Under the pieces are notes generated by a model. The model ran no database searches, was not told where the DNA came from, and worked only from the letters and a program-made list of their open reading frames with translations. DNA of 64,000 bases from Candidatus Omnitrophota bacterium. Lineage in GTDB: Bacteria > Omnitrophota > Gorgyraeia > Tantalellales > Tantalellaceae. The translations under genes and the position numbers were made by a program. The stretch covers positions 19,063 to 83,062 of the forward strand of contig JAJRVD010000027.1 of NCBI GenBank assembly GCA_024277375.1, in the 5' to 3' direction. Shown in pieces: positions 6,608 to 58,550 of this stretch (its first letter is position 1; every line of letters starts with the position of its first letter).

Positions 6608-6621
6608 AGGCCGCTCCTACG
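6604..6621 (+). repeat. Partial copy of REP family B (AGGCCGCTCCTACG core)
   Basis: gtagaggccgctcctacg matches the core of the REP sequences that flank the RAYT gene at 55965-56526. It lies at the 3' end of pabB. Confidence 0.5.
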
Positions 6622-6622
6622 A

Positions 6623-8035
6623 TTATTTAGATAGGCTGTCTATGAGCGCGCGCGCCTTTACGAGAGTTTCTTCATATTCCAGCTCGGGGTCACTGTCGGC
6701 GACAATACCGCCACCCGCGGCGAAATATACTTCGGTCCCTTTTACTACCATTGTGCGGATAGCGATATTAAGGTCCATAGTATCATGGAAACTTATGTAG
6801 CCTATAGAGCCTGTGTAGATGCCCCTTTGTGTAGGTTCCAACTCATCCAGTATTTCCATAGCTCTTATTTTAGGGCAACCTGTTATTGACCCTCCGGGAA
6901 AAGCGGCTTTTATTACCTCCACCAGGCTTGAAGTTTTATTTTGCTCTCCTTGTATAACGGATATTGCCTGAAATACGGTAGGATATGTTTCGATCCTTCT
7001 GGATTCGACAACTCTGATCGATCCTGGTACGCAGACCCGGCCGAGATCGTTCCTCTCGAGGTCCGTTATCATGGATAGTTCCGCTGTATCTTTAGTGCTC
7101 GTGTCTAATTCAAGCTTAAGAGCTTTGTCTTCCTGGGGATTGCCTCCACGTCGGCGAGTTCCTTTCATGGGACGTGTCTCGATAGTGTTTTGGCGTTTTC
7201 TCAAAAAGAGTTCGGGGCTTGAGGAAATGATCTTAGAGTCTATAAAATTCAGATACGCGCTGAAGGGTGAGGGGTTTAATTTGTTTAGTTTTAAGTATAA
7301 ATCATATGGATCATGTGGCCATGTGGTTTTAAAGCGTTGAGAAAGACATGCCTGGTAGATGTCACCCGCGCGAATATGTTCGATAACGCTTTTTATGGCG
7401 TTGGTGTAGGATTTCTTGGTAAAATTTAATTCGATAGATCCTGATACTGATATTGGGGTCAGGTCTCCACATTTGACATTGTGAGGTCTTGTCGGAAGTG
7501 TCAAATGTGGAGACCTGACCCCAATATGCGCGACAGTGATCCGGCCAGGCTCTTGCCTGTCATAGATAAGGATCGTTCGGTAAAAAACAAAGTAGATATC
7601 GGGGAGGTCCAAGTCATCTTGCGCTTTTTGCGGCAGTATTTCCAGACGATCTTTAAGGTCATAGGACAGGTAGCCTATGCCTCCGGCGGTGAAAGGCAAG
7701 TTGGTCGTATTATTGGTTTTATAGTGTGTGAGTATGGACTCCAGGCATTTAAAAGGATCTTCCTGAATGCTGAAACTGTCCCTTTCAGTTCGAATGGTCA
7801 AGTTTGTGCCTTTGCCCTTAAAAGTGAGGAAGGGGTGCGTTCCGATAAAGGAATACCTGCCCGCATCTGTTTCAAGGGAGCTGTTCAGGAAAGAAGTGTC
7901 ATCTTGATCGGAGAAGTGAGAATAGAGATCCTCTATCGAACAGTTAATGGGGATTTGTTCGACAGTTGGGGTAGAGTTTATTTTTGGGAGATTTGATAAT
8001 AGTTCGCGGCCGGAGGCCGCTCCTGCGTTATTCAT
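6623..8035 (-). CDS. pabB: Aminodeoxychorismate synthase component I (PabB; chorismate-binding enzyme, TrpE/PabB family)
   Basis: C-terminal chorismate-utilising signatures are present: PGGSITGCPKIRAMEILDELEP, RGIYTGSIGY and AGGGIVADSDPELEYEETLVKA. These are near-identical in pattern to E. coli PabB. The 470-aa length fits. The first roughly 12 codons are encoded by a REP-B repeat, so the true start is uncertain. Confidence 0.8.
   Translation of the reverse strand: MNNAGAASGRELLSNLPKINSTPTVEQIPINCSIEDLYSHFSDQDDTSFLNSSLETDAGRYSFIGTHPFLTFKGKGTNLTIRTERDSFSIQEDPFKCLESILTHYKTNNTTNLPFTAGGIGYLSYDLKDRLEILPQKAQDDLDLPDIYFVFYRTILIYDRQEPGRITVAHIGVRSPHLTLPTRPHNVKCGDLTPISVSGSIELNFTKKSYTNAIKSVIEHIRAGDIYQACLSQRFKTTWPHDPYDLYLKLNKLNPSPFSAYLNFIDSKIISSSPELFLRKRQNTIETRPMKGTRRRGGNPQEDKALKLELDTSTKDTAELSMITDLERNDLGRVCVPGSIRVVESRRIETYPTVFQAISVIQGEQNKTSSLVEVIKAAFPGGSITGCPKIRAMEILDELEPTQRGIYTGSIGYISFHDTMDLNIAIRTMVVKGTEVYFAAGGGIVADSDPELEYEETLVKARALIDSLSK
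8002..8027 (-). repeat. REP family B copy (gttcgcggccggaggccgctcctgcg)
   Basis: A near-exact match to the REPs flanking the RAYT at 55965-55991 and 56501-56526. It contains the GCGGCC-GGAG-GCCGC hairpin. It overlaps the pabB start and the ispH stop. Confidence 0.7.
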
Positions 8036-12245: not shown

Positions 12246-12329
12246 GTGAACCGTCCTTTAGAGTAGAGGGTAGGGGCGTAATGCGTTACGTCCCTACGTT
12301 TTAATATTATTTATTGTGAACGATTTTTA

Positions 12330-17306: not shown

Positions 17307-17414
17307 GACGTAGGAGCGCCTTCCACCGCCGCCAAGGTCTTCGACGGACAGGCCGGCCGCGAACATAAAAATTGTCATCCTGAGCGAGGCCGTTAGGCCG
17401 AGCCGAAGGATCTC
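17307..17414 (+). repeat. Composite intergenic repeat: REP-B variant (gacgtaggagcgcc...ggccgcgaac) followed by REP family C (tgtcatcctgagcgaggcc...gccgagccgaaggatctc)
   Basis: Both halves recur elsewhere in the window. Family C is at 29647-29695, 42445-42521 and 55372-55415. Confidence 0.6.
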
Positions 17415-17420
17415 TGAAAA

Positions 17421-18044
17421 ATGAGTACTATTATAAAATCCATATTTTTCGATCTTGGTAACGTCTTGGTTAAACTTAAGCCGGAAATGCTTGCGGAGGG
17501 TTTTGCCCCTTATTGTAAGGCTAAAAAGGGTGAGATCATCCCCTATGTTATGGAGCAATCCAAGCAAGTGGATAGATACATGGAAGGTAAATCCACGTCT
17601 TCTCAGTTTTATACAAACACCTGCAAATATTTTAAAATGAAGATCAAGTATTACGACTTTTACGAGATCTGGAACAGTATGTTCGATCCGTATCCGGAGA
17701 TGGATGATATTATAAGGACTCTTAAAAAAGACTATCCCGAAATTAAATTGCTGCTGCTTTCTAATACCAATGAGGCGCATTACGGATATATTAAAGAGAA
17801 GTATAAGATCTTGGAAGTATTGGATCATCATGTGGTTTCACACGAAGTCGGTGCTCAAAAACCTGACCCCAAAATATTTAATGAGGCGTTAAAGATAGCC
17901 GGTAGTATTTCCAAAAATACCTTTTATACGGATGATCGTCAGGATCTGATTGATGCCGCGCGTGTTATGGGTCTTCGGGCGTTTCAATTTACAGATCACG
18001 AATCTTTTAGCAAACAACTCTCCAAGTTTGAAATTAACGTATAA
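17421..18044 (+). CDS. HAD-superfamily phosphatase, YihX-like (alpha-D-glucose-1-phosphate phosphatase type)
   Basis: The N-terminus IFFDLGNVLV matches the YihX-type motif I. A C-terminal YTDDRQDLIDAA motif IV-like segment is present. Confidence 0.7.
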   Translation: MSTIIKSIFFDLGNVLVKLKPEMLAEGFAPYCKAKKGEIIPYVMEQSKQVDRYMEGKSTSSQFYTNTCKYFKMKIKYYDFYEIWNSMFDPYPEMDDIIRTLKKDYPEIKLLLLSNTNEAHYGYIKEKYKILEVLDHHVVSHEVGAQKPDPKIFNEALKIAGSISKNTFYTDDRQDLIDAARVMGLRAFQFTDHESFSKQLSKFEINV

Positions 18045-18060
18045 GAATAGGTAGGCTTGA

Positions 18061-18152
18061 TATATGAGGGGCCATACCGTGCTCAAACATGCGGAAGAAC
18101 AGAAGTATTATTCTGTTCTTCCGAACTGCGCGCGGTATGGCCCCTCATATAT
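18061..18152. repeat. Compound hairpin (20-bp outer stem atatatgaggggccataccg / cggtatggcccctcatatat enclosing an inner 11-bp hairpin)
   Basis: Outer arms at 18061-18080 and 18133-18152 are perfect inverted repeats. The inner segment ggaagaacagaa...ttctgttctcc also pairs. The motif ccgaactgcgcgcggta recurs at 48987-49003. Confidence 0.6.
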
Positions 18153-18240
18153 CAAGCCCTGGAATAGTAATGTTATCCTGAACGAAATGTTCGTAGGGCA
18201 TGAAGCTGAATGATTTCAATTGAAAGCTATTCTGTGGAGT

Positions 18241-18280
18241 GGGGGGACAGAGCCTTTTTGGGCAAAAAGGCTCTGTCCCC
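18241..18280. repeat. Palindromic repeat family A (GGGGACAG-N-CCTTTTTGGGCAAAAAGG-N-CTGTCCCC)
   Basis: A perfect hairpin with a roughly 17-bp stem. Related copies are at 18694-18733 and 55531-55590. Confidence 0.65.
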
Positions 18281-18451
18281 ATTTTAACTATAGATGTAGT
18301 GTGGGATGTTAAATGATTATAATAAAAGCACTTATGCTCAAAAGCCGTTAACATTCAAAAAGGTAGCCATGTGGCCTTGCTAATGTTGTTACTATTGGGT
18401 AACATATAAGTGCAAATAAAAGGTAGATAGGGGCTAAAGAATATATCTTTG

Positions 18452-18597
18452 TGGGGGCGCGGCATGCAGACTGTGTCGTAATTTGTTTCGCGGATGACCG
18501 CATACAACATATTGTAGGGGTTCGATTTATCGAACCCGATATAACGGGCTTGATGAATCAAGCCCCTACATTATGACACAGTCTGATGCCGTGCCCC
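18452..18597 (+). repeat. Family D structured repeat, copy 1. It is about 115 nt, with an outer stem cagactgtg/cacagtctg and two internal hairpins. It could be an ncRNA or a MITE.
   Basis: The core tgtgtcgtaat...gtaggggttcgatttatcgaacccgatataacgggcttgatgaatcaagcccctacattatgacacag is conserved in 4 copies. The outer stem pairs with a G-U wobble (tgtgtcgtaat / attatgacaca). The internal hairpins are ggttcgat..atcgaacc and gggcttga..tcaagccc. Confidence 0.7.
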
Positions 18598-18693
18598 TAC
18601 GGATGATTTTTTTTGCTCGGTTATTTCAAACATTTTAAAAGCATATGAGGTGCAGGCGATGAAACTGTCATTGAGAAGAGGAGCTAAGAGCAA

Positions 18694-18733
18694 GGGGGAC
18701 AGCCTCTTTTTGGCCAAAAAGAGGCTGTCCCCC
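18694..18733. repeat. Palindromic repeat family A copy (gggggacagcctctttttggccaaaaagaggctgtccccc)
   Basis: A perfect hairpin. It lies inside the first 35 codons of the six-frame ORF 18650, so the real start of the giant gene is probably downstream at 18755. Confidence 0.65.
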
Positions 18734-18754
18734 TTGCTACGTTGTTCGCTCGTG

Positions 18755-21700
18755 ATGACGGGGAAGGGTATTGCCTCGCTGGTCACTTTGATAGCTTTTG
18801 TATTAAATATTTTAGGCGCGGAAGTTATTAGTATAAAAGCATATGCCGCTATTTCCCCTGAAATAGCTTCTACCAATCCCGCTGAGTATAATTTTCTGAA
18901 TGTCGATTCTTTTACATTACCCAAATACCTTGGAACCATAAAAGATTTGTGGAAGTCTGCCTCCGGACGAGACACGGTTATTCATATCCAGGACGCTCAT
19001 TGTAACTATGCCGCGCAGGATACGATAGCTAAGATGATAGAACGTATCGATTCGGAGTACGATATAGACGTGATAAATCTTGAAGGCGGCGCGGAGGATT
19101 ATGACCTGTCTTTGTTTACCGATATTGAGGATAAGGGCGTAAGACAAAAAGTAGTCGACTATTTTATGAAGCTTGGCATGGTCTCCGGTGCCGAAAGCTT
19201 TGTTCTTAATAATCAGGATAAAGCAAAGTTATGGGGCGTCGAAGACGTGGATCTTTATTTTGACAACCTTAGCGCCTACCGGAATTCGCTGGAGTACAAG
19301 GAAGAAGTTGACGGGTATCTTAAAATGCTCAGCCGTTTGCTGAATGAACTTAAAATAAACGTTTATTCGAACGAACTTTTGGAGTTTGATCTTAAATATT
19401 CCGCTTACAAGGCGGGTAATCTGGCTTTCAGAGATTATGTGATCTATATTCGTGATAAGGCCGCGAAATGTGCTATCGACATGGAGGAGTTTGAGAATAT
19501 TGCGTTATTGTCTGAGTCTCTTGAACTTGAGGGCAAAATTGATTTCAAAAAGGCCAATCGCGAGAGGGATATGCTCATAGAAGAGCTCCGGCGCATGGTC
19601 TCGAAAAACGAGCTTGAAAACCTGGTGCTCAAGACCTTACAGTTCAAGAAAAAGATAATTTCCCGGAAAGACTATTATACGTATCTTTTTGAAAAAGCGC
19701 GGCTTGTGAACATCGGCTTGGATGGGTTCGGCGAACTCAGGAAATACACTGACTATATCTCAAAGTATCAGACCGTTGATAGATCAAAGATATTAGAAGA
19801 AATGTCTATTATTGAGGATGCGATCAAGGATGTTCTATGCGTAAAAGATAAAGATCGTACGCTTGTCAGGTTGTCCAAGAATTTCGCGCTCCTAAAGAAC
19901 ATATTCAACGTCTCGCTCACAAAAGACGACTATGTGTATTACAAAACCAACGAACCCGCGTTCGCGGTGAAAAACTATATTTCATTCATTAAGGCTAACG
20001 ACTCATCATTGCGTGGAGCTGTGCCTTTCTCGCCGTTGCGAGGAGCCGACCTATCCTCTGTCATTGCGAGCCCGCCGAAGGCGGGAGAAGCAATCTCTGA
20101 AAACATCTATAATCTCGACCGCCACCGCGAACAAATATCCCGTTTTTACGAAGATGGCATCAAGCGTGACGATGCATTCTTGCGCAACCTCAGGTTTCAA
20201 CGTAAGCAGGGAGTAGGAAGCAGGGAGCAGGGTGTCGTAGGAGAGGCCTCTAGCCGTGAACAAAAAACGACAATTTTAGTTACCGGCGGATTTCACACCA
20301 AAAATTTATGCGAGCTGTTTAAAGAGAAAGGTATCTCCTACGTTTCTATCATGCCTAACTTCCGGAATGAGAATGGTTATGAAAGCCCGTATTTTAACCT
20401 TCTCGCTGGTAAGAAAAATGATGTAGCCGCGGCGCTTACAAGTGATATATCTTCGTTGGCGTTATATTCTGATTTATTGCAGAACGGTCTAAACAATGGA
20501 GATTTTACCTCGAATGTTAAAGCGGTTAGAAGGTTGTGGGTAAGTCTGGTTGCCGCTCAGATCAGGAAAAACGGGAGAAATGTCATATTCGGAGATATTA
20601 ATGGTCGTTATAGACGCTATTCATTCAACTCCGAAGATGGTGATCCTGTAGCGGGACTTACAATAAACGGAAAACAGGTATACGCAAGGAATTTTGGTGG
20701 GGAAAGATCCCTTCAGGCTGAAGCGAAGGCATTATATGAGGAAATTTCCAGAGATATTGTATCCTTTGCCGCGGAAAGAGAGGAGATAAAGTCCGCGGTT
20801 GTCAGGTTAAGAGAGATCTTTAGTACTTTTCCCGACGTTGTTATCTCTGAAGTGAGAAATTTCTGGGAAAATGAAAAAGAAAGCACCGGAAATGTTTTCA
20901 GAGCTGTCGAGTTCTTTGATCTGATGCCCGAGATAATGCTTAATGCGAAAGTAGAGCGGTTGAAAGAAGCGGCGTTGAGTTTTGTCGACCGTCAACTGGA
21001 ACATATTTTTGACAGAGAAAACGCGGTGGCCATATATAACGAGATAATATCTACCGACGAAGGTATTCCTCAAGACCTGCTCAAATACGCTTTGTACTAC
21101 AGGAATCTAAAGGAGGGTAAAACTCTTACGGATGAGCAGTTGGCCCTGCATGGCCTCAGCAGCAAAGAGGACTTCCCATATTCCCTCGAGGTCGATCGTG
21201 TCTTAAAACACAAGGATGATAGTAATCCTAAAAAACTTTTGCTTATTTATAATGCTGAACATACCAGTATGGTAGGGATGGGAGACCAGATATCAAATGT
21301 GGTTCCCCTGGTTCAGGCACTTAAGGATAAATATCCCAAGTTGGACATAACCATATATACGGATAAACCCTTTGTGTATGAGGCTCATGACAATGTCCGT
21401 GTATTTAGCATGTCTTCTCCCGGAATAAATGCCGAAGAGGTTTTTGATATGGCGATCGATTATTCGGACAGTAAGAGTCGAGAGGAATATCCGGATAAAT
21501 ATTTAGTTCAAGAAGCGCAGATCTCTATTGTAGGGGATTTCAATAATTTAACAGTTAAGGCTAAGGGGTTACCGCCTTTGGGCATAAAAGTTCGTAATCG
21601 AAGTAATGCATATTCATTAAGCTTACGGTTATGTGCCGAATTGAGACTTCCTGTCAGGATAGGAACAGAACAACCTCAGACAAGTTCGATAGTTCTTGGC

Positions 21701-24700
21701 CCGGGTAGTGAGGAAGCCGATATGTGGTGGGAGGAAAATGTAGTATTGAAAAACACAGAAAAGAGAAAAGTCGTATTTTTGAATCCGTATGGAGGGGAAT
21801 GGAAGGAAAAGGGATACATTTATAACGATAGGCTAGTCAAGGATATAGAAGCCCTTCTTGAAGACGGAAACTATATTGTTATATCTCCAAATGACACTCG
21901 TTGGGGTACTCGTGAAAAAATCGAAGAAATGCTGAAACTATTAGATGCAGCAAAACAAAAATACATTACTATTTCAAAGGGTCCGTCAGAGGCTGGAAAT
22001 TTAATAAAACATTGGTTATATAGGGCTGATCATATTGTCACGGTTGAGGGTGGTACCGCGCATTTGGCCTACAATTTGGGTAAAACATTTACGCTTGTCT
22101 GGAAAAGAGGCGCGGGATTACTACATGATATCCCGCCTATGTGCGATCTTGGTCAGGAGTTAATCCCGATAGGAGGTAAACCGCAGGATATAGTGGATGC
22201 TGTTAAAAGAGCTTTTGAGAGTGACGATGAAGGCTCAAAAGTTACTAGTATCGGAACCGGAATTTTGCGAAAAACAAAAACAGTACTATCCGGTCTTTTG
22301 GTCTTTCTTGCCGGATCTTCAGCTTTGCAAATACTTTTGGCGGGCGATCTCTTCGCGGCGACGCCGGATGCGATTATGCAGGCTACTGCGACGCCGTGGG
22401 GCTGGATTGCAGTAGTGGTGGTTGCGGGTTTTATTGTGTATAGGTATTTTGCGATGTCTGCAGAAAGAATGGGTACAAAAGTTATTCCATTGGGAATAGC
22501 AGGTTTGATCTTTATGGGGGTTCAATGTAGCTATGCAGCCGCGTTGTCTCCACGTGAGGGTAAAACAAAAATATTAGTTTCATCTGCTGAGTTTCAGGAA
22601 AAACAGCAGCAGATCCGAGAAATGATAAAAGGGCTTGCGGATAGCGAAGAACATCTTTCAGGGAAAGAAAGGGAGTTGCTTGAAGGAATATTAAGTCTTA
22701 TCGAGGATGGAGATATCAAGATTAAATATGATCCTGAAAGGAATTATGCGTATGCCGATAAAGAGAATAAAGAAGTCGGGTTGCCTGAGAGTAGCTTCAT
22801 GGACAGGTATCGATTGGCGAGTGCCATAATTCATGAATTATTACATCAGCTATGCGCGAAACGTAATATCGATTTTTCAGATAAGATTAAAACGAGTGGG
22901 TTTAATGATTCAAATGATTATTGGCAATGGCTTGATCCCGGGGAGGAAGGATGGGTGCTCCGAAATACCATGATGATCATGAATCAAATCCCGATGGAAG
23001 CATTAGGCCTGAAACTGCTACTTGCGGAAGTCCCAAATCAAGAATCTTTCAATACTCAGATATTGACATATGATAACGAACCCATTACGAATGTTGACAG
23101 AATTATAGAATTGGCAAAAGATCCGGAAATGGTTATGGAAAAAAGAAGATTTCTGGTGAAGTTGTTACCTCTCATAAGCCTTAATATCGCGGAAAAAGTC
23201 GGAAACACCGGGATCATAAGGCCAGTTGACGCGGAAACCTCAAAAGAGGCAGAAGAGGCTTTGCTGGCTTTGAAAAAGTATTATGAGAGCGAACAAAATA
23301 TATTAGCAACGAAACATAAAATCCTGAAAAACAATAAGAAGAGACCCAAGCTGGTTAATGGGGCGGTCCGTCTGTCCTGGAAAGATCCCTCCAAGCTAAC
23401 ATCAGAAGATAAAGATCTCGTTGAATGGTGGTCAAATGTTAAATTGCTGGAAACGATAGAGCTATCAAGAAGGATGCTTAACGAGAGCAAGGTAAGTGTA
23501 GATAAAAAGTTAGATGAGTTTACTGTCCTAATAGTGGATGGGATCAAGCGTGAAATGAAGGTATCTGATTTGAGAATAGGGATGGCACGTATGTTGTATG
23601 GGAGTGAAGAAAAACTCGTAAAAGATGTCTTGAGGGAGTTGAAGCCTTGGGAAATCGACCTGATCGTGTATTACCAAAAAGAGATAAGGATCAAGCTAAA
23701 ACAGACTATTTCATATTATGAGGGAAGAGAGTTTGAGTTTAATAAGAACAACTTAACGGGAGCAATTAGCACGATAATGATGTCGCTTTTGCGGGATGTC
23801 TCAAAAACCGAGTATAACAGCATTTATGATCATAATAATCGTGGCCTTAAATGGGATGACCCGGGACGGTGGCATGGGCTCACGTTTGATGATAGATGGT
23901 ATGAGATCGGCAACCTGAATGGTTTATCATATAATTACTATAACGAACATCGTAAAAATGAAACAGAGGAAGAAAAGTACAAAGCTGATAATCCAAACAG
24001 GCCGAAAAATTTCGTTAACAATAACGCGACAAAAGGGTTTCGCGTGGATATGAGGGAGACATATTTATTCATGCGCTTCTATCCTGAAGAACTAGCTAAG
24101 ATCGTTAAGAAGGACAGAGGTGTAGCCGCAAAAGTAGAATTATTGGAAGAATATATGGGCAAATTGAAGCGGAATGTTAATAAAACAGCAAAATGGAGAG
24201 GAGACAGACAAAAAAAGAAAGAGAGTGAAAAGACATCAGACGGTATCAATACACTTAAAGGAATAATGGCTTTCGCGATAGCCCTGCCGCTTGTGCAGAT
24301 GCTTTTGGCGGGCGATCTCTTCGCGGCGACACCGGGGGTGCTTGTGCCCTCGATATTTAACTCGTTTAATGTTATAGGGTTCTTGTTAACGGTGGTGTGC
24401 TTAGGTTTAGCCGGGCTTATTCTTTATTATGATACCAATGATGCGGACGAATGGGATGATATCCCAGAGAGTGAGTCGATAAGGGCCTGGCAGGTTCTCT
24501 TAGGAGGGCGTGAGTGGGAAAAGATGGGGAAAGAATTCACTGACCGCTTAGCGATCTTGACCCCACAGGAGAGTGAGAACCGAACACTTCTTTTTGAGTT
24601 TTTGGAGAGATTCGGAAGAAAAGATTTACTCGCCCATATCAAGAGAAAACCGGATGAATTTTTGCCTGTTCTTGAGCATTTGAGGGGTAGTGAATTCATT

Positions 24701-27700
24701 TCAGGATACTTTGGAGAATTACTATATAGGGTAGACCGGTCGGGGGAGAAAGAACAGGAATTGCTGGATCTTGACTTGAAGACAGAACCATTGAAGGTAT
24801 GGGAATTGATAGATATTCTCATTGAAGTTGATTCATTTCAGCAAGATCTATACGAGTTCCTGACAAAAGATACCGCATATTCGGCAATACCCGGACAACA
24901 GTATTTGCCGCTTAATGTGAATGTCGTAAATGTTGTAGGGCAGATGGTTGAAGAAACGAGAAGTGCAAATCGGGTGAATATAAGGGGCAATCTTATCGCG
25001 ATAAGCGGGCAATTCCCCGGATATTATGCCGCTATTTGCGATTCTATTCTGAGGAATCCTGCCAGGATTCTAGAATTTGACATTGCCCCGGAAGTTGTAG
25101 AAAGAAATCTAAAATTTCTTCAACCTGAAAATTCCAAAGATCATATAACCTCTTTTGAGGGGTTTGTGGCGTTTCTGAAGAGGGAAAGTAAAGTTACCGA
25201 TAATATGGGGAAATCACCCATTGGTAAAGGTGTTCTGGATATATCGAAACGTGTTTTTAAATTCTTCGGCAAGGAAATAACTCCGGTTGTTGAAAATACA
25301 TGGATCCCGGTATTTGAAGAACTTGTGATGTTTTTGGTTTTGGCGGGCGGATATTTGGGCGGGTTATTCGTTCTTTCCGCACTGCCGTATATCCTCACCA
25401 GAATTATATTTACCGCATGGCACCTGAAAAACGAAAGTGGCACCTGGTTGCAGAAAATGCTTGTGCCGGGCATCGCGTCTGTGTTTGCGCTTATACCGGT
25501 GATGGCGGTTTTGGTATTGCCGGCGGTGTCCGCAGAGTTAATGTTAGCGGCGGCATTGGCTTTGGGAACCGGAACACATGTGCTAGGAAACCGGAGAGTA
25601 CACAAAAAGCGGATGGATGCATTTAAGCGTATCTTCGAAGAGAAAAAAGAAACTCTCGTTAAACAGGTAAGTGATGAAGAATTATTGGATGAATTTATCG
25701 GATATCTAGATGTGAATGTCAAAGAACTATTCGGGATCGGATTGCTTCTTGAGATAAGAGAGTTCTCTAAGTCTATACCTTTATCCAGAGATGAACAAAC
25801 TCGTCGCGGAAGACAAAGGGCGATTCTTTTAATGGCCGGGTTGAATGTCAGCGAAACGGAGTTGTACAAAGAAAATCAAAGAAAGATCGAGGAAGAACGC
25901 GTAATAGCGGAAGATCTAAATGGTATGGAAAATATTCATGATCTGATAGAGGGAAAGTTTGTTACGGTAAAACAGCTGAAAAGGGCCATAGAACTGTCCG
26001 CTGGGAACATAACCTCAGCGCTTGAAACATTAAATAAACTGAAAGACGTTATTAAAAAACACGGTATCGATGAGCTGTTTGAATTAGCCGATTTGGAGCG
26101 CGTATCCAATAATGTTCCGTGGAATTGTTTTGAATGGGTTGATTATGATTCCGCGCGAGATTTATTGGATCAATACGGCATCAAGCCATTTCTCAAAATG
26201 AGACGTTTGGGAGTAGGAGAATATTCATATCGTTCCATAGATTCTTATTCTCTGACGCTTCGGGGCATATTTAATTTGGTTAGGGACATGAGAGATGGGG
26301 ATATCAGTGAGAGATATGGGATAAGTGTTACCGGTTCTAATGTCGAGAAAATAACCATCAACATCATCAAAGAAAAGATATCGCTAAAAGGGCCGTCCAG
26401 TTTGCCTGTTAACATGTTCCCGGAAGATGAGATCGAATTTTTAGAAAAAAGTCATGAGGATACATACCGGCGTGAGAGCGAAAAAAACATGGATCGTTAT
26501 CTGAACAGGGAAAAACATAAAAAAGCGATATTGTCGTATATGCTGCTTTGCGAACGTTACGGCCCGGATAACATTAGGCGTCTTGTGCGGGATAACGTGC
26601 TGGAGAAGTGGAGCGAAAAAGTAGAGTCAATTAAAGACCAGTTGAGAGATCTAAAATCCGTGATCGACTTGCCGAGTGTCGGGATAGAACCGTTTGTTGA
26701 GTTTTCCGGAGGGAATGAAGACGGGCTTTGGCCGCTGACATTTATTGAAAAAGAAAAATGGGCACAATTTCTTACGTCGATACTAATTCAAAGAGGAGAT
26801 GTCACCGCGAAAAATAAAAGGCTCAGCGATCTTTATATCAACAATATGCTCGCTTCGGTAGGGAACAATATTGTTCCGAATGTGTCTATGATCAATGTTA
26901 TCGCGGAACTCCTTACACATAACGCGCAAAGCGGGGTACATCCCGTAGAGAGTTTTTTGCTTTCCGCGCTTGGTGAAGCGGGATTAAACAAGGGTTCAAT
27001 AGAAAAAATCTTAGAATATCTGGCGAAGAACAAAAAAAGTGAGATAAAAAGGTCGCAAATTATACGGGCCTTAGCCGGTATATATTGGGGATTTAAGTAT
27101 GAACGCTTTTCGGCGGGAACAATAGATACGCGAATGATAAACGCTATTATCGAGACGGAAGACACTCGCCGATTAAGCGCGGCGCTGAATTTTATCCCCG
27201 CGTTAATTGATCTTCTCGAGTCGGGAATACTTGCCAAAGAAGAGATCGAAACCGGGACAAGATCGGGAAATATAGTTGACAAAATCGGAGGGTTATTGAA
27301 AAGTAAGATTGAAGAAACATTTAGTATAAAGATCAGTGATACCGATTTGGAGGTACAGGCGGCTCTTTCCGACACGTATTTTCTGGCGGATTTATTCAGT
27401 TTTCGAAGAAAGTATAAGGAAGAAGACGAAAACGCCTATAAGATATTCCTGGGATTGGTCAAAGCGTATTTTGAGAACGGCAGTAAAGGTGTGAGAGAAT
27501 ATAAAAACTCAAATGAGCTTGTCAATGTACAAATCCCTGAAAGGATAAAGGAGAAAGGATTTGAACAACTTTCGCGCCTCAGGACGTTCGCGCGGTCGGG
27601 GGAAGGTGAAGAGATGAGTGTATTTGACCGACTATTTAAAACAACATTAAGAAATTATGATGAGCATTCTAAGGAAATGAAATTTGATCCCGGTTCGATC

Positions 27701-29623
27701 AGCGCGGCGTCAACGGAAGAAATAAGTAACTTTGAGAAGAGTATAGAGGAGTTTCGCGGGGGAATAAGTAACATTGAATTAAAGAAAGCTGTAGAGCATG
27801 CTATAGCGTCGGGAGATACTAATACGTTAAAGAAGTTAGAAAATCTATCACGTCCGGATAAAAAGTCACGCGGATATGCTATCGGATCGATCGAAAAATT
27901 GTACGCGATGCGGCAAGAAGGTAGCGTGGTCGAAGCGGCTATGATAATCAAGAGCCTGCGCGGTATCAAAGATATTTCCGTCGGGGAACAGGAAAAAGAG
28001 CTCAGGACATTATATTCCTCCAGCAAAGAAAAGATTGAGGAGCTTATTCCGACATTGAGGTATATCCGCGGCAAAATGCAGGCTAAAAATAAACCCGTAG
28101 CGATAATTATAGGAGGAATGATTGGTTTATTGACAGGATTGGAAAAATTCTCAACAGGAAAGAGCGATATATTATCGGAGAAGAAAATCACGGCGGAAAT
28201 AAGTTTTGACCTGAAAGAGATCTTAAAAATAGGGCGTTACGGCGCCAGCGGCGAAGGTAATTGCCAGCATAGCAATAGTCCGGGTGAGAGCAACCATAGT
28301 TTAATGAGTTTTATAGGGGACGCTCATGAACTTATTATTCTGTTTAGAGATGATGACGGTATTGTCGTAGGGCAGGCGCTGATGCACGGAGTATACCTGG
28401 AGACCGGAGATTTTGTTTATATGAAAGAGGATGTTTACACTAATGATAATTCCCTGAAAGCGTTGATGGAAACCGCGGCAAGGAGAATGGGTAAGGCAAT
28501 AGCTAATTTTTACGGAATTAAAGTTTTAGATCCAGGGGCAGTCGAGAATAAAAAGATTTTTAATAACATAAAAATACCGCCAAGTAAGGTATTTCGTTAT
28601 TTAGACTCATTGGGCGGAGAAGTGTACACGTTTATGGAATCCATGCCGCTTGAAAAACCTTTATTGGCAGGGGTAGTTGAACCTATACACATTCGGGGCG
28701 GACGGGAAAGTAGCTATAGATTGTCTCCCATCGGCGGGATGTTGAGTGCGGATCAGCTGATCGCCCGTGCACAGGACCCTAAGATTTCTGCCGCGGAATT
28801 GGTCGGAAATCTGAAGCTGACCGGATTAGATCAAGCACATGTGGTTCAGGAGGCTTTGGCTGATCCGGAATATGCCGACAAGCTCAAAGAATTTAACAGG
28901 TTGCTTGCCAGGGCTCTGGGGGGAACCGAACTTGTCGAAAAGGCGAAAAGGGAGGAGAGGGAAGAAGCGATCGAAGATCGGCAGGCGGTGACGGTGGAGG
29001 TATTTGGGGAGGTTAACAGGAAAACCGATACGGTGAGAGCGGTTATAGGTGTTCCCAAAGGCATGCCGCAGAAAGTACTGCAGAAAATGCTTCGTGAAGT
29101 TAACAGAGGCCTTGCCAAAAATGGGTTTGGAGAGAGAAACGATACGCATCAGGTCATAGTGTTTGAAATGGATGCTGACAATAAAGATTTAACGGAAAGT
29201 AACCAGGCCGCGGCAGTAGAAAAAGCCCGGAAAGATCTATCCAAAAAAGGAATGATCGTTCTTTTTTCGCCCGAGACGGACAAGTTGCCGCTTGCGGAAC
29301 TCACGGTTGAAAAGTACAAGGATCAAGAAAATATTACTATTATCAGAGATGCTTATTCAGATTCCAAGCCGCAAGAAAAACAGTTCCTTGATGTTGATGT
29401 AAGGGCGGCACTCGCTAGGCATATAGCTTTTTATTATAACGGCAGTGATCAAGCATCCGCGATAAGCGCGATAAATGCTTTGATGAGGCAGATATCCGAT
29501 GAGCATAAGGACATATCGGATATAAACGAACTATTGGCCATGGTTGTTAGAATAAGGCCGATCGATTATGGGGAAATAACGCAGTGGGCCGAAGCGCAGA
29601 TAGCGACGGCAACGTCGCTGTAA
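18755..29623 (+). CDS. Giant (about 3620 aa) polytopic membrane multi-domain protein with an embedded GT9 (heptosyltransferase-like) domain
   Basis: A 10.9-kb open frame. The ATG at 18755 is the first start downstream of the family-A palindrome. An N-terminal TM helix is present. Region nt 18920-20450 carries IHIQDAHCNYAAQ and ILVTGGFHT, a weak resemblance to the TraB/GumN/ChaN fold. Region nt 21230-22110 matches the GT9 pattern: KKLLLIYNAEHTSMVGMGDQISNVVPLVQALKDKYPKLDITIYTD and ADHIVTVEGGTAHLAYNLGKTFTLVW. An HExxH motif (IIHELLHQL) is near nt 22835. There are two TM bundles, each beginning with the identical motif LLAGDLFAATP (nt 22339 and 24301). A further 4-helix TM bundle is near nt 25300-25600. 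Confidence 0.8.
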   Translation: MTGKGIASLVTLIAFVLNILGAEVISIKAYAAISPEIASTNPAEYNFLNVDSFTLPKYLGTIKDLWKSASGRDTVIHIQDAHCNYAAQDTIAKMIERIDSEYDIDVINLEGGAEDYDLSLFTDIEDKGVRQKVVDYFMKLGMVSGAESFVLNNQDKAKLWGVEDVDLYFDNLSAYRNSLEYKEEVDGYLKMLSRLLNELKINVYSNELLEFDLKYSAYKAGNLAFRDYVIYIRDKAAKCAIDMEEFENIALLSESLELEGKIDFKKANRERDMLIEELRRMVSKNELENLVLKTLQFKKKIISRKDYYTYLFEKARLVNIGLDGFGELRKYTDYISKYQTVDRSKILEEMSIIEDAIKDVLCVKDKDRTLVRLSKNFALLKNIFNVSLTKDDYVYYKTNEPAFAVKNYISFIKANDSSLRGAVPFSPLRGADLSSVIASPPKAGEAISENIYNLDRHREQISRFYEDGIKRDDAFLRNLRFQRKQGVGSREQGVVGEASSREQKTTILVTGGFHTKNLCELFKEKGISYVSIMPNFRNENGYESPYFNLLAGKKNDVAAALTSDISSLALYSDLLQNGLNNGDFTSNVKAVRRLWVSLVAAQIRKNGRNVIFGDINGRYRRYSFNSEDGDPVAGLTINGKQVYARNFGGERSLQAEAKALYEEISRDIVSFAAEREEIKSAVVRLREIFSTFPDVVISEVRNFWENEKESTGNVFRAVEFFDLMPEIMLNAKVERLKEAALSFVDRQLEHIFDRENAVAIYNEIISTDEGIPQDLLKYALYYRNLKEGKTLTDEQLALHGLSSKEDFPYSLEVDRVLKHKDDSNPKKLLLIYNAEHTSMVGMGDQISNVVPLVQALKDKYPKLDITIYTDKPFVYEAHDNVRVFSMSSPGINAEEVFDMAIDYSDSKSREEYPDKYLVQEAQISIVGDFNNLTVKAKGLPPLGIKVRNRSNAYSLSLRLCAELRLPVRIGTEQPQTSSIVLGPGSEEADMWWEENVVLKNTEKRKVVFLNPYGGEWKEKGYIYNDRLVKDIEALLEDGNYIVISPNDTRWGTREKIEEMLKLLDAAKQKYITISKGPSEAGNLIKHWLYRADHIVTVEGGTAHLAYNLGKTFTLVWKRGAGLLHDIPPMCDLGQELIPIGGKPQDIVDAVKRAFESDDEGSKVTSIGTGILRKTKTVLSGLLVFLAGSSALQILLAGDLFAATPDAIMQATATPWGWIAVVVVAGFIVYRYFAMSAERMGTKVIPLGIAGLIFMGVQCSYAAALSPREGKTKILVSSAEFQEKQQQIREMIKGLADSEEHLSGKERELLEGILSLIEDGDIKIKYDPERNYAYADKENKEVGLPESSFMDRYRLASAIIHELLHQLCAKRNIDFSDKIKTSGFNDSNDYWQWLDPGEEGWVLRNTMMIMNQIPMEALGLKLLLAEVPNQESFNTQILTYDNEPITNVDRIIELAKDPEMVMEKRRFLVKLLPLISLNIAEKVGNTGIIRPVDAETSKEAEEALLALKKYYESEQNILATKHKILKNNKKRPKLVNGAVRLSWKDPSKLTSEDKDLVEWWSNVKLLETIELSRRMLNESKVSVDKKLDEFTVLIVDGIKREMKVSDLRIGMARMLYGSEEKLVKDVLRELKPWEIDLIVYYQKEIRIKLKQTISYYEGREFEFNKNNLTGAISTIMMSLLRDVSKTEYNSIYDHNNRGLKWDDPGRWHGLTFDDRWYEIGNLNGLSYNYYNEHRKNETEEEKYKADNPNRPKNFVNNNATKGFRVDMRETYLFMRFYPEELAKIVKKDRGVAAKVELLEEYMGKLKRNVNKTAKWRGDRQKKKESEKTSDGINTLKGIMAFAIALPLVQMLLAGDLFAATPGVLVPSIFNSFNVIGFLLTVVCLGLAGLILYYDTNDADEWDDIPESESIRAWQVLLGGREWEKMGKEFTDRLAILTPQESENRTLLFEFLERFGRKDLLAHIKRKPDEFLPVLEHLRGSEFISGYFGELLYRVDRSGEKEQELLDLDLKTEPLKVWELIDILIEVDSFQQDLYEFLTKDTAYSAIPGQQYLPLNVNVVNVVGQMVEETRSANRVNIRGNLIAISGQFPGYYAAICDSILRNPARILEFDIAPEVVERNLKFLQPENSKDHITSFEGFVAFLKRESKVTDNMGKSPIGKGVLDISKRVFKFFGKEITPVVENTWIPVFEELVMFLVLAGGYLGGLFVLSALPYILTRIIFTAWHLKNESGTWLQKMLVPGIASVFALIPVMAVLVLPAVSAELMLAAALALGTGTHVLGNRRVHKKRMDAFKRIFEEKKETLVKQVSDEELLDEFIGYLDVNVKELFGIGLLLEIREFSKSIPLSRDEQTRRGRQRAILLMAGLNVSETELYKENQRKIEEERVIAEDLNGMENIHDLIEGKFVTVKQLKRAIELSAGNITSALETLNKLKDVIKKHGIDELFELADLERVSNNVPWNCFEWVDYDSARDLLDQYGIKPFLKMRRLGVGEYSYRSIDSYSLTLRGIFNLVRDMRDGDISERYGISVTGSNVEKITINIIKEKISLKGPSSLPVNMFPEDEIEFLEKSHEDTYRRESEKNMDRYLNREKHKKAILSYMLLCERYGPDNIRRLVRDNVLEKWSEKVESIKDQLRDLKSVIDLPSVGIEPFVEFSGGNEDGLWPLTFIEKEKWAQFLTSILIQRGDVTAKNKRLSDLYINNMLASVGNNIVPNVSMINVIAELLTHNAQSGVHPVESFLLSALGEAGLNKGSIEKILEYLAKNKKSEIKRSQIIRALAGIYWGFKYERFSAGTIDTRMINAIIETEDTRRLSAALNFIPALIDLLESGILAKEEIETGTRSGNIVDKIGGLLKSKIEETFSIKISDTDLEVQAALSDTYFLADLFSFRRKYKEEDENAYKIFLGLVKAYFENGSKGVREYKNSNELVNVQIPERIKEKGFEQLSRLRTFARSGEGEEMSVFDRLFKTTLRNYDEHSKEMKFDPGSISAASTEEISNFEKSIEEFRGGISNIELKKAVEHAIASGDTNTLKKLENLSRPDKKSRGYAIGSIEKLYAMRQEGSVVEAAMIIKSLRGIKDISVGEQEKELRTLYSSSKEKIEELIPTLRYIRGKMQAKNKPVAIIIGGMIGLLTGLEKFSTGKSDILSEKKITAEISFDLKEILKIGRYGASGEGNCQHSNSPGESNHSLMSFIGDAHELIILFRDDDGIVVGQALMHGVYLETGDFVYMKEDVYTNDNSLKALMETAARRMGKAIANFYGIKVLDPGAVENKKIFNNIKIPPSKVFRYLDSLGGEVYTFMESMPLEKPLLAGVVEPIHIRGGRESSYRLSPIGGMLSADQLIARAQDPKISAAELVGNLKLTGLDQAHVVQEALADPEYADKLKEFNRLLARALGGTELVEKAKREEREEAIEDRQAVTVEVFGEVNRKTDTVRAVIGVPKGMPQKVLQKMLREVNRGLAKNGFGERNDTHQVIVFEMDADNKDLTESNQAAAVEKARKDLSKKGMIVLFSPETDKLPLAELTVEKYKDQENITIIRDAYSDSKPQEKQFLDVDVRAALARHIAFYYNGSDQASAISAINALMRQISDEHKDISDINELLAMVVRIRPIDYGEITQWAEAQIATATSL

Positions 29624-29646
29624 CAGTGGATAGTTGTTAGTGAATA

Positions 29647-29695
29647 GAGATCCTTCGACTTCGTGCTCTTCGGGCACTCCGCTCAGGATGACAGG
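29647..29695 (-). repeat. REP family C copy, reverse orientation (cctgtcatcctgagcggagtgcccgaag...)
   Basis: It is the reverse complement of the family C consensus. It is intergenic, between the giant ORF stop and the era stop. Confidence 0.55.
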
Positions 29696-29756
29696 GGTGG
29701 AGGCATTACATAGCATCATATACTACGTGCGCTGTACGCTATACGATGTACGCAAA

Positions 29757-30762: not shown

Positions 30763-30810
30763 AAAGGGACAGTCCACGCACTCACTACGTTAGTTTGGGA
30801 CAGTCCCTTT
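30763..30810. repeat. Palindromic repeat family A-prime (AAAGGGACAGTCC-acgcactc...-GGGACAGTCCCTTT)
   Basis: Related copies are at 32247-32292, 48932-48983 (inverted) and 51151-51192. It lies in the era/mgtE divergent intergenic region. Confidence 0.6.
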
Positions 30811-32246: not shown

Positions 32247-32292
32247 CCGGGGACAGTCCACGCACTCGCGTTGCTCGCTTGGGACAGTCCCC
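32247..32292. repeat. Palindromic repeat family A-prime copy (ccggggacagtccacgcactcgcgttgctcgcttgggacagtcccc)
   Basis: About 85% identical to 30763-30810. It sits directly after the mgtE stop and may act as a terminator. Confidence 0.6.
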
Positions 32293-32521: not shown

Positions 32522-32609
32522 ACGTAGAAGTCGTATTATCCTTCGGATAATGGGCGGCGAACAATAAATTTATTCGCGGTCCATCGCCGAAGGCGATACC
32601 GCTCCTACG
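32522..32609. repeat. Inverted doublet of REP family B variants (acgtagaagtcgtattatccttcgg ... ccgaaggcgataccgctcctacg)
   Basis: The two arms are reverse complements of each other (about 22/25 positions). They are separated by an AT-rich spacer gcgaacaataaatttattcgc. Confidence 0.6.
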
Positions 32610-33173: not shown

Positions 33174-33220
33174 TGCAGAGGTTGCCACGTCGTCCGCTTC
33201 GCGGACTCCTCGCGGTCGAA

Positions 33221-33331
33221 TTGTGTCGTAATTCGTTTTGCGGACGCTCGCATGCAATATATCGTAGGGGTTTGATCCATAGAACCCGATATAACGGGCT
33301 TGATGAACCAAGCCCCTACATTATGACACAG
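33221..33331 (+). repeat. Family D structured repeat, copy 2
   Basis: ttgtgtcgtaattcgttttgcgg...gtaggggtttgatccatagaacccgatataacgggcttgatgaaccaagcccctacattatgacacag. It is 55 nt upstream of purH. Confidence 0.7.
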
Positions 33332-33385
33332 CTTGAATGACGGGAGAGGCACTGTACGCTAAACGCTAGAAAAAAGGAAGTTTTC

Positions 33386-39747: not shown

Positions 39748-39760
39748 GAGGTGCAAATTA

Positions 39761-39835
39761 ACGTAGGAGCCGCCTCTGGCGGCGAATTGTAAATAATGTT
39801 CGCGGAATATCACCGAAGGTGATACCGCTCCCACG
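39761..39835. repeat. Inverted doublet of REP family B variants (acgtaggagccgcctctggcggcgaa ... ccgaaggtgataccgctcccacg)
   Basis: Same architecture as 32522-32609. It lies between the L,D-transpeptidase and accA. Confidence 0.6.
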
Positions 39836-42400: not shown

Positions 42401-42553
42401 ATAACTTACGCGACCGAAGGAAGCGTAAGTTATAAGTGGGGAATTTATCCTGAGCGAACGAACGAAGTGAGAGAGCCGAAGGATCTCATTCCAGATTCTT
42501 CGCTTCGCTCAGAATGACAGGAGTAGAGATTGCACGGGCCTGCGGCCCGCGCA
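42401..42553. repeat. Cluster of three hairpins between mlaE and mlaF, including an inverted doublet of REP family C (42445-42521)
   Basis: First hairpin: ataacttacgc..gcgtaagttat (42401-42433). Family C doublet: atcctgagcgaacgaacgaag...cttcgcttcgctcagaatgacagg. Third hairpin: gggcctgcggcccgcgc (42536-42553). Confidence 0.6.
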
Positions 42554-44012: not shown

Positions 44013-44528
44013 ATGATAAAAAAAATTATCATATGTGTTGCCTTCCTCTTAAGCCTGACTTATCTTACGTACGCCTCTAGCGATACGATCGTAATACTTT
44101 CTTTTGCCGGTGATGTGAAAATCATACCTTCCGGCGGAACAGATCCTGTTTTTTGTAATCCCGGTATGATATTGAAAGAAGGGACGCGTATTATTACGGG
44201 AGAAGAATCCTATCTTGAAATGGCTTTTGATAGATCCAGCCGAAACATCGTAATAGTAAAAGAGAACAGCGAAGTCGTCATTAGGCTGGACGGGATAGAC
44301 AAGATCAGTCTTATAGACGGTAAAATGTATACGCTTCTGCGGGAGCTTAAGAAAGGCGCGACTTTCAGGGTCCGGACACCAAGTGCCATATGCGGTGCTC
44401 GTGGTACCGGATGGAGCGTGTCGGCGGATGAAAACGTAACAGAGATCATATCTTTTGACGGCAGGGTTTTTGTTCGGGGCATAAACAGTGACGGGTCGGG
44501 AGCGGAAGAAGAGGTCTGGATCGAGTAA
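44013..44528 (+). CDS. Secreted FecR-domain protein (171 aa)
   Basis: A signal peptide is followed by the FecR-domain pattern GDVKIIPSGG...LKEGTRIITGEESYLEMAFDRSSRNIVIVKENSEV...FRVRTPSAICGARGTGWSV. Confidence 0.6.
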   Translation: MIKKIIICVAFLLSLTYLTYASSDTIVILSFAGDVKIIPSGGTDPVFCNPGMILKEGTRIITGEESYLEMAFDRSSRNIVIVKENSEVVIRLDGIDKISLIDGKMYTLLRELKKGATFRVRTPSAICGARGTGWSVSADENVTEIISFDGRVFVRGINSDGSGAEEEVWIE

Positions 44529-44872
44529 GGATATTCCAGGAAGATAAGAAAGTTCGAACGCCCCGGTAAAATGGAGAAGGTATCAGAAGCTAAGCTATCA
44601 GACTTGTTGGCGGAATTCGGGATCAAGAAAAACATACAAGATCATGACAAAATAAAAGCTATCAGTAAAATGCAGCGGATGAGAGAGGAACACACCGAAC
44701 ATTTGCTTGAGAAAAAAGATGAGAGTAGGTTTGATCAGATGCGTGATGATAAAAAAAATGACAGATCCTCGGGCGGCGGTCAGAAACACTAGGGTTAGAT
44801 TGGTCACACTGCCAAGTGGTCAATAAATAGGCTTGTGCAAAATGGAACTTTTGTTATTCAGGGTGTGTCGTA

Positions 44873-44977
44873 ATTCGTTTTGCGGATGACAGCATACAAC
44901 ATATTGTAGGGGTTCGATTCATCGAACCCGATATAACGGGCTTGATAAATCAAGCCCGTACATTATGACACAGTCTG
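44873..44977 (+). repeat. Family D structured repeat, copy 3
   Basis: gtgtgtcgtaattcgttttgcggatgacagcatacaacatattgtaggggttcgattcatcgaacccgatataacgggcttgataaatcaagcccgtacattatgacacagtctg. It lies between the two FecR-domain paralogues. Confidence 0.7.
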
Positions 44978-49011: not shown

Positions 49012-49092
49012 AATACCTGAGAAGCATGAAGTAAAATAGAAGCGGGATCTGCCCGCGAACCAAAAAAGTGTCAAAATATCAAAAGGAAAAAT

Positions 49093-51150: not shown

Positions 51151-51192
51151 AGGGACTGTCCCGAGTGAGCGCAGCGAACGGGTGGACTGTTT
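51151..51192 (-). repeat. Family A-prime palindrome copy directly downstream of tRNA-Ala
   Basis: agggactgtcccgagtgagcgcagcgaacgggtggactgttt is related to 48932-48983. It may serve as a terminator for the tRNA pair. Confidence 0.5.
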
Positions 51193-55371: not shown

Positions 55372-55415
55372 CTGTCATCCTGAGCGAGGCCCGAAGGGCC
55401 GAGTCGAAGGATCTC
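55372..55415 (+). repeat. REP family C copy (ctgtcatcctgagcgaggcccgaagggccgagtcgaaggatctc)
   Basis: Matches 17373-17414 at about 90% identity. It carries an internal ggcc-N-ggcc hairpin. Confidence 0.6.
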
Positions 55416-55530
55416 ATAATATTGAATAAACAACATTTTTATTATACTTAACTTTGACTTAAAAGATAAGATATATTGAATAAAAATCAATAAAATGATA
55501 AAATTAAGAGCAACAGAAAGATAGTTGACA

Positions 55531-55590
55531 ATAGGAGCAATGGGGACAGCCTCCTTTTGACCAAAAGGAGGCTGTCCCCATTGCTCCTAT
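55531..55590. repeat. Family A-type perfect 28-bp-stem palindrome (ataggagcaatggggacagcctcctttt-gacc-aaaaggaggctgtccccattgctcctat)
   Basis: The two arms are exact reverse complements. It ends 18 nt upstream of the comEA start codon. Confidence 0.7.
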
Positions 55591-55608
55591 TGCCAGGAGA
55601 GATGAATT

Positions 55609-55965
55609 ATGGAACAAAAATCCGATTATTCTGAAAGAATAGTGCTGATCGGTCTTTGCGTTATATTATTCGCGGGTGCACTGTTCCTGAATGAGAAAGA
55701 CTCTCTTCAAGTCGAACGGCCGGATCTTATGAAAATTAAAGAGTTCTTGGATGAGAGGAAAATAGTTAATATAAATTCGGCTACTCCCGGTGAACTTACA
55801 GATCTTCCCGGGATCGGGAACGTGATGGCTCAAAGGATAGTGAAATATAGAAATGAGAATGGTAGTTTTAGTTTCGCTGATGATCTGTTAAAAATTAAAG
55901 GTATAGGCCCGAAGAAACTCGAGAAGATGAAGAGCTACATTAACGTAGGAGTGGCCTCAAGATAA
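55609..55965 (+). CDS. comEA: ComEA-like competence protein (TM anchor plus tandem helix-hairpin-helix DNA-binding motif)
   Basis: INSATPGELTDLPGIGNVMAQRIVKYRNENGSFSFADDLLKIKGIGPKKLEKM. The last 6 codons are REP-B sequence. Confidence 0.7.
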   Translation: MEQKSDYSERIVLIGLCVILFAGALFLNEKDSLQVERPDLMKIKEFLDERKIVNINSATPGELTDLPGIGNVMAQRIVKYRNENGSFSFADDLLKIKGIGPKKLEKMKSYINVGVASR

Positions 55966-58325: not shown

Positions 58326-58550
58326 AAATATTCTCAAAATAGAAACCTCATTATAGCAATGCCGTTTTTCGAAGTCAAGAACTGTTCGATATTTACCCGA
58401 TCCGGGTCTTTTCCGGGCCCTTTCCAGACCTTTCAGAAACTTCTTGTCTGCCAAATAGTACTGTAATATAATAACTTATCTTTTTTATGCAGGGAGTAGG
58501 GGCACAGCATACCGTGCTTCCACGTATACGAAATTACAAACAGAGAGGAT

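Follow-up and report, generated by a model that had tools for sequence, protein, structure and literature searches.

REP (repetitive extragenic palindromic) sequences often come paired in inverse orientation as bacterial interspersed mosaic elements (BIMEs) (PMC8266576). The GTAG-tagged REPs, as the available text of one survey describes them, comprise 24 families with stems of 6-13 bp and loops of 2-3 nt, commonly form heterodimers, termed 'HH' where the GTAG tags lie outside, show frequent G-T pairs, and usually lie between unidirectional genes (Di Nocera, De Gregorio & Rocco 2013, PMC3733652). In Anabaena variabilis GTAG-15, according to the same text, dimers sit inside a longer conserved palindrome of which no empty copy is found (PMC3733652). 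For REPINs (REP doublets forming hairpins) the replicative unit is an inverted doublet plus its flanks (Bertels & Rainey 2011, PMC3116915), which folds as a stable hairpin or a less stable 'clover' and in which compensatory hairpin changes are common (PMC3116915). G-T pairs and compensatory changes are routine in such REP and REPIN hairpins, which act as single-stranded DNA (PMC3733652, available text; PMC3116915). Here, a 119-120 nt repeat is described from a 64-kb stretch of a Candidatus Omnitrophota metagenome-assembled genome (MAG) (assembly GCA_024277375.1, contig JAJRVD010000027.1, positions 19,063 to 83,062 of the forward strand; hereafter the window). The four copies examined, c1 to c4, all come from the window, and the element is probably a REPIN/BIME-type composite of GTAG REPs, i.e. 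a miniature, non-autonomous mobile repeat.

The four-copy repeat is real and far above chance. A 56-nt core pattern matches the window four times, with 0, 3, 1 and 0 mismatches, and not once in 100 shuffles, while a covariance model built on the four copies returns the same four and no fifth or partial copy within the window. A repeat finder recovers the family independently as a three-member direct set and three inverted pairs. An earlier, sequence-only reading of the window had proposed a novel structured RNA in four intergenic copies, and both the count and the setting hold, as all four copies are located between plus-strand genes. After the copies were read directly and then aligned to fix the family bounds (Table 1), its coordinates proved right for c4 and nearly so for c2, while the start of c3 (44873) had been placed 14 nt too far in and the interval for c1 (18452-18597) was too wide, because approximately 15 nt per side belong to another, split hairpin, here called REP-3. 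Pairwise identity between copies is 82-93%. The neighbours are a HAD hydrolase gene upstream and an open reading frame (ORF) of 3657 aa downstream for c1; a 183-aa gene ending 44 nt before and purH starting 51 nt after for c2, in a spacer of 212 nt; a FecR-domain gene on each side for c3; and, for c4, a TPR/porin-like gene ending 16 nt before it and a FecR-domain gene 40 nt beyond it.

Table 1. Positions (window numbering) of the element copies, of the parts of the unit in copy c1, and of associated REP and transposase features.
Feature	Position	Strand	Description
c1	18467-18585	+	119 nt; best preserved, 39 Watson-Crick and 1 G-U of 40 pairs; covariance model 147.8 bits
c2	33217-33335	+	Most decayed, 82% identity to c1; covariance model 128.4 bits
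c3	44859-44977	+	Covariance model 137.3 bits
c4	60081-60200	- (inverted)	Core equals consensus, left arm diverged; covariance model 119.7 bits
Left outer inverted repeat	18467-18482	+	CAGACTGTGTCGTAAT in c1, 16 nt
Small left-arm hairpin	18490-18501	+	GCGG atga CCGC (c1), 4 bp, within left arm of ~31 nt
Inner unit a (REP-2)	18514-18537	+	GTAG head, then GGGTTCGAT tt ATCGAACCC; helices 3 and 4
Spacer between units	18538-18545	+	GATATAAC, 8 nt, invariant in 4/4 copies
Inner unit b	18546-18569	-	On minus strand GTAG, then GGGCTTGAT tc ATCAAGCCC; helix 5
Right outer inverted repeat	18570-18585	+	ATTATGACACAGTCTG in c1, 16 nt
REP-3 hairpin, 3' arm	18452-18466	-	Other GTAG class, split by c1
REP-3 hairpin, 5' arm	18586-18600	-	GTAG head, minus-strand GTAGGGGCACGGCAT; 14/15 identical to 58496-58510
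REP-1 unit upstream of RAYT	55966-55993	+	CGTAGGAGCGGCCTCCGGCCGCGAACAT, directly 5' of gene; 28-nt arm, 100% complementary to partner
RAYT gene	55995-56496	+	NF047646, 101.5 bits (cutoff 80); in-frame TAG at 56352-56354
Inverted REP-1 unit	56499-56526	-	Directly 3' of RAYT gene

In the orientation of c1-c3, the element consists of an outer arm, the left arm, unit a, the spacer, unit b with its closing CTAC, and the second outer arm. Units a and b are mutually inverted with their GTAG heads outermost, i.e. an HH heterodimer, and in all four copies each unit is approximately 25 nt long and is made up of GTAG, a 9-bp stem and a loop of 2-3 nt, the single exception among the heads being a GTAC in c3. 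Both inner hairpins of the sequence-only reading are thus present, as are their GTAG/CTAC closure and an outer inverted repeat of 16 nt, the arms of which are 15/16 complementary in c1 and c3. Conservation is highest in the GTAG dimer core (0-3 mismatches), and the termini carry up to 3/16 mismatches. The small left-arm hairpin (helix 2) is paired in 87.5% of cells and is poorly retained in c3 and c4, and the full 119 nt is kept in all four copies. Within the window, the left outer repeat CAGACTGTGTCGTAAT occurs only as part of element copies, and no single unit of the element's hairpin class was found outside the doublets. The architecture is already known from GTAG-tagged REP dimers, which the sequence-only reading had not recognised, and only the exact sequence is new; an exact core 20-mer had no match in 185,579 species genomes. 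An 18-mer of the core gave three matches in JGI metagenomes, all lacking the hairpins, which were set aside as chance.

Under the proposed mechanism, the core would be a head-to-head heterodimer of GTAG-GGGTTCGAT-nnn-ATCGAACCC and an inverted partner GTAG-GGGCTTGAT-nnn-ATCAAGCCC, extended by the small hairpin and the outer inverted repeat, and the entire 119-nt piece would be copied together. On transiently single-stranded DNA the unit could fold as two hairpins (a 'clover') or as one long hairpin, and an HUH/Y1 REP-associated tyrosine transposase (RAYT) would recognise the GTAG head and hairpin, cleave, and rejoin the unit in other intergenic DNA, with loops of other palindromes among the possible targets. 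In mRNA, the stable hairpins could alter decay or processing as a by-product, as for REPs. A RAYT is the presumed mover of this hairpin class; the moving enzyme was not found and may have been lost.

That the copies are insertions follows from comparison with two syntenic relatives, L021 (GCA_042564445.1) and L022 (GCA_030765685.1), which keep the same order of genes between uvrD and FecR at protein identities of 42-85%, since the spacers orthologous to those holding c2 and c3 are only 14 and 23 nt long in L021. In L022 the c2 spacer contains 301 nt of unrelated sequence and no copy before purH. Both relatives lack, between HAD and era, the 11.7-kb segment that holds c1 and the giant ORF (18045-29756), and the covariance model found no full element copy in approximately 120 kb of Omnitrophota loci. 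At c1, the flanks GGGGCGCGGCAT and ATGCCGTGCCCC-TAC pair with one another as the two arms of a REP-3 hairpin, of which an intact relative lies at 58496-58523, so that c1 lies within another GTAG unit's loop. The mobile, MITE-like alternative raised in the sequence-only reading (MITE, miniature inverted-repeat transposable element) is therefore supported by unrelated insertion loci, both orientations, absence from the relatives' spacers and the placement of c1 inside another palindrome.

The window also contains a RAYT gene, whose best match in PDB is 4ER8, the TnpA-REP of E. coli, and in which the HUH motif (HLH) and the catalytic tyrosine (YDH motif) are present. Two REP-1 units directly flank it, and units and gene together (55966-56526) form a REPtron. 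The closest homologues are 165-166 aa long with 59-61% identity, belong to Candidatus Omnitrophota where named, and carry K, R or G at the position of the in-frame TAG; the window gene is accordingly either a nonsense mutant (a recent pseudogene) or the product of a sequencing error. RAYT orthologues in three other contig families of Candidatus Omnitrophota are flanked by the same REP-1 class, and at one of these loci (L024, 9720-10000 and 10500-10625) the orthologue lies between tandem REP-1 arrays with a 64-nt period, adjoining a tRNA gene.

GTAG hairpins are widespread in the window beyond the element. GTAGGRG occurs at 24 sites against 9.3 expected and heads several further hairpin classes. 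More copies of the REP-1 class (cGTAGGAGCGGCCTCCGGCCGCGAAC and longer-loop variants) lie at 8002-8031, 32573-32609, 39754-39835, 49027-49059, 55945-55965 and 6614-6620; that at 39754-39835 is an inverted pair in a spacer that measures 14 nt in L021. A REP-1-like unit (cGTAGGAGAGGCCTCTAGCCGTGAAC) at 20236-20260 lies in frame within the 3657-aa ORF, possibly an intragenic REP as reported for Opitutus terrae. Single hairpins of a 'double-headed' kind, which bear GTAG and CTAC at their opposite ends (e.g. GTAGGGGCGTAATGCGTTACGTCCCTAC), were seen at 12270-12297 in the window, at 3772-3800 in L010 and at 619-647 in L019. The left-arm hairpin of the element, TTTCGCGG...CCGC, was considered as a decayed REP-1 and dropped, as TTCGCGR is too frequent in the window (47 sites, mostly coding).

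Several observations weigh against assigning the element to a RAYT-driven REP system. The RAYT of the window is flanked by REP-1 (GTAGGAGCGGCC...) and not by the element's hairpin class, as are its orthologues; none of seven RAYT loci examined (L023-L034) carries the element's GTAGGGGYTYGAT hairpins, three more distantly related RAYTs have GTAG hairpins of other classes, and no RAYT lies within approximately 4 kb at any of 17 loci in other phyla that share the hairpin (described below). The in-frame TAG removes the C-terminal 46 residues of the window protein, and deletion of the matching region cripples the E. coli enzyme (PMC8266576). The copies examined number four, all within 64 kb, and at 82-93% identity the family is not obviously active at present. 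Finally, a classical transposase would also fit the outer inverted repeat of 16 nt and what may be a 3-bp duplication at c1.

This last point underlies the first alternative, a classical MITE, in which the element would be a deletion derivative of an insertion sequence, mobilised by a DDE transposase acting on the 16-nt terminal repeats, and the GTAG hairpins would be cargo or coincidence. The terminal inverted repeats, the length of approximately 120 nt, the two orientations and the intergenic sites are all as such an origin would predict, and insertion sequences that target REP loops exist, for example IS1397 and ISKpn1. However, the 3-nt flanks match at 3/3, 2/3, 2/3 and 1/3 positions in c1 to c4, and the ATG on both sides of c1 belongs to its palindromic target and cannot count as a clean duplication, so that target-site duplication is inconsistent across the copies, with no clear one at the other three sites. 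Further, no transposase gene or longer element with these ends was found in the window, nor a parent element in the plasmids or fetched loci, a blastn search of c1 against plasmids returning no match. The most conserved part of the element is the GTAG dimer core and not the termini, and the core has relatives in other phyla that lack these termini. A classical MITE is therefore considered unlikely.

A second alternative is that the repeat is a structured RNA maintained by selection for its fold, whether a cis-acting element of leaders or operon spacers or a gene for a small RNA. Predicted stability is very high (-44 to -62 kcal/mol; z-scores -4.8 to -10.6), and the plus-strand RNA fold is the more stable in three of four copies. 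The z-scores are strong on both strands, and two alternative folds are predicted: units a and b either pair with each other, giving a single long and imperfect hairpin, or each form a hairpin of their own. The sequence-only reading had described a covarying outer stem with a G-U wobble and had taken the wobble, together with the pairing of copy 4, as favouring RNA over a DNA repeat. The wobble is there (G12-T109, in c1-c3), and among the four copies 93% of cells are paired, but the outer stem of c4 has four mismatches in its own orientation and only 2 of 40 pairs changed on both sides, a number equalled by 143 of 500 shuffles, so that covariation among the copies is not above controls and the argument for RNA loses its support. 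Such changes are also routine in REPs.

A strand asymmetry in the non-Watson-Crick pairs bears on the same question, as there are 12 G-U pairs against 9 mismatches on the plus strand of the window, the sense strand for every flanking gene, and 4 against 17 on the minus strand, with the inverted c4 following the genomic strand and not its own orientation. This was rejected as proof of RNA function, as the independent events number approximately 10 against 4 and GC skew confounds the comparison. The plus strand, which holds nearly all the genes, has a skew of approximately +0.2 across the window, strong and positive throughout (0.06-0.24), and this would by itself favour G-T over A-C there, with no need for selection. 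More generally, where a genome has a strong GC skew, the finding of stable hairpins that contain G-U pairs is weak evidence for an RNA gene.

Searches for known RNAs and expression signals were likewise negative. The Rfam scan that had been proposed was run with Rfam 15 at gathering scores and returned five tRNAs only across the window, and a relaxed scan of c1 (E up to 10) gave just two chance-level matches to eukaryotic families. No promoter common to the copies was found and no terminator-like site accompanies c2, c3 or c4; the only T run at c1 comes after the flanking REP-3 arm and not after the element. The orthologous spacers of the relatives lack the repeat, so purH and the FecR genes do not have it as a conserved leader, and, with one copy inverted, no single sequence of the element could serve as the functional RNA at every site. 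Selection for an RNA function as the primary explanation is thus quite improbable. The copies are nevertheless probably transcribed, as very stable hairpins within polycistronic mRNA, because all four sit in same-strand gene strings, and a by-product effect at the RNA level of the kind known for REPs is plausible because the places they interrupt are, in relatives, tight junctions within operons.

A third alternative, in which a double-stranded DNA binding array of operators or nucleoid-protein sites is formed by the 6-3-6 palindromes TTCGAT-n3-ATCGAA and CTTGAT-n3-ATCAAG, would account for two adjacent, near-identical dyads at fixed spacing upstream of genes, but is highly improbable given that the downstream genes are unrelated in function (a giant ORF without a Pfam domain, purH, FecR-domain genes), that the sites are missing at the orthologous genes in relatives, and that the GTAG heads, long extended G-C stems and covariation suit hairpins better than operator half-sites.

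To return to the reading as GTAG REPs, single units of the hairpin class occur well outside this phylum. The pattern GTAGGGGYTYGATNNNATCRARCCC was found at 17 loci, with approximately one expected by chance under equal base frequencies, all in MAGs assigned to Acidobacteriota, Aminicenantes, Ratteibacteria, Cyanobacteria, Anaerolineae (Anaerolineaceae), Planctomycetota, Fibrobacteria, Patescibacteria and Proteobacteria, and had no match in IMG/VR. Three of the loci (L011, L012, L015) carry the same TTYGAT + CTTGAT HH heterodimer with spacers of 20-22 nt, and in Ratteibacteria (L014) the heterodimer has an 8-nt spacer, GAAACAAC, that differs from that of the element at 2/8 positions, scores 48.8 bits against the model core, and shows a compensatory G-C to A-T change in hairpin 1. 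Outside the window, the covariance model of the element matched no more than the core. Across 11 genomes, the two stem positions that the pattern leaves free covary: the first has 4 C-G, 10 T-A, 1 T-G and 0 C-A (Fisher p=0.004), and the corresponding counts at the second are 3, 9, 1 and 2 (p=0.08). In the syntenic relative L021, one unit of this class follows folC, and its TAG is the folC stop codon. Separately, five loci from one Acidobacteriota MAG (L012, L016, L017, L018, L020) share at least 150 nt around the hairpin GTAGGGGCTTGATCTAATCAAGCCC, which suggests a longer multi-copy element carrying the hairpin subterminally.

These observations invite the tentative and rather doubtful proposal that MAGs of Omnitrophota, Ratteibacteria, Acidobacteriota, Aminicenantes and no fewer than six more phyla have a single REP family in common, the class GTAGGGG-YTYGAT-nnn-ATCRAR-CCC, even including its TTYGAT + CTTGAT heterodimer. 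If so, either a RAYT/REPIN system moved horizontally between phyla, or the hairpin was kept or re-invented under a common constraint, and either outcome would run against the current view, in which REPIN-RAYT systems are inherited vertically and are specific to lineages. In the present genome the family may survive as an orphan, and its sense-strand G-U bias may stem from secondary selection as an mRNA hairpin. Recurrence of the hairpin class in approximately 10 phyla, at times as the same heterodimer, offers a handle on RAYT-REP exchange among distant bacteria.

For the window itself, a candidate novel structured RNA is replaced by the annotation of a REP-doublet mobile repeat with a RAYT/REPtron alongside, in a little-studied phylum, and inserted repeats explain several MAG spacers of 100-500 nt where relatives have 14-40 nt. 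Further repeats and irregular genes were observed in passing. Members of a separate family of long, perfect palindromes, based on GGGGACAGCCTC...GAGGCTGTCCCC and with arms reaching 34 nt, lie at 18233-18286, 18685-18738 and 55526-55595, one of them scoring as terminator-like; a small family bounded by GGGACAGTCC...GGGACAGTCCC lies at 30766-30807, 32250-32291 and 51151-51190; and a repeat with GCCGAAGGATCTC between GAGCGAA-type motifs lies at 17396-17427, 42440-42520 and 55397-55428, and may be shared within the phylum, as a similar motif occurs upstream of purH in L022 (9820-9900). The giant ORF (18650-29623, 3657 aa) has no Pfam domain, and its GTG start lies upstream of the perfect 54-nt palindrome at 18685-18738, so that the true start is probably later. 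The first FecR-domain gene (44013-44793) has an in-frame TAA at 44526-44528, with similarity to the L021 orthologue running on to 44606, which, with the RAYT, makes two interrupted genes in 64 kb.

Among known systems, classical bacterial MITEs such as the Correia elements, RUP and ERIC have terminal repeats that match a DDE insertion sequence, together with target-site duplications. Like the present element, they measure approximately 100-150 nt, carry terminal inverted repeats, fold as hairpins, lie between genes in both orientations and are often co-transcribed, but they lack the GTAG-headed internal REP dimers that this element has. REPINs share with it the copying of an inverted doublet plus flanks instead of a single REP, the long-hairpin and 'clover' folds, compensatory hairpin changes, an intergenic and lineage-specific distribution and a RAYT in the genome; unlike in the element, however, the REPs of Pseudomonas REPINs stand at both ends of a spacer of approximately 70 nt, whereas here they are adjacent in the centre with an extra palindrome outside (PMC3116915). 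A further difference from REPINs is that the search turned up no cognate RAYT with this REP class on its flanks.

A further comparison is with the BIMEs of enterobacteria and with the GTAG REP dimers, the latter as the available text of their survey describes them (PMC3733652). The stem GGG-YTYGAT was not found in that text and its supplements (figures excluded) or in the other literature searched, Omnitrophota is not among the species named there, and the element departs from those dimers in its spacer of just 8 nt and in the asymmetric 31-nt left arm and 16-nt outer inverted repeat. It nevertheless shares with them the GTAG tag followed by a stem of 6-13 bp and a loop of 2-3 nt, the HH inversion, a heterodimer with differing stems, the G-T pairs, the position between unidirectional genes, the presence of several REP classes in one genome, and the occurrence of some dimers within longer conserved palindromes.

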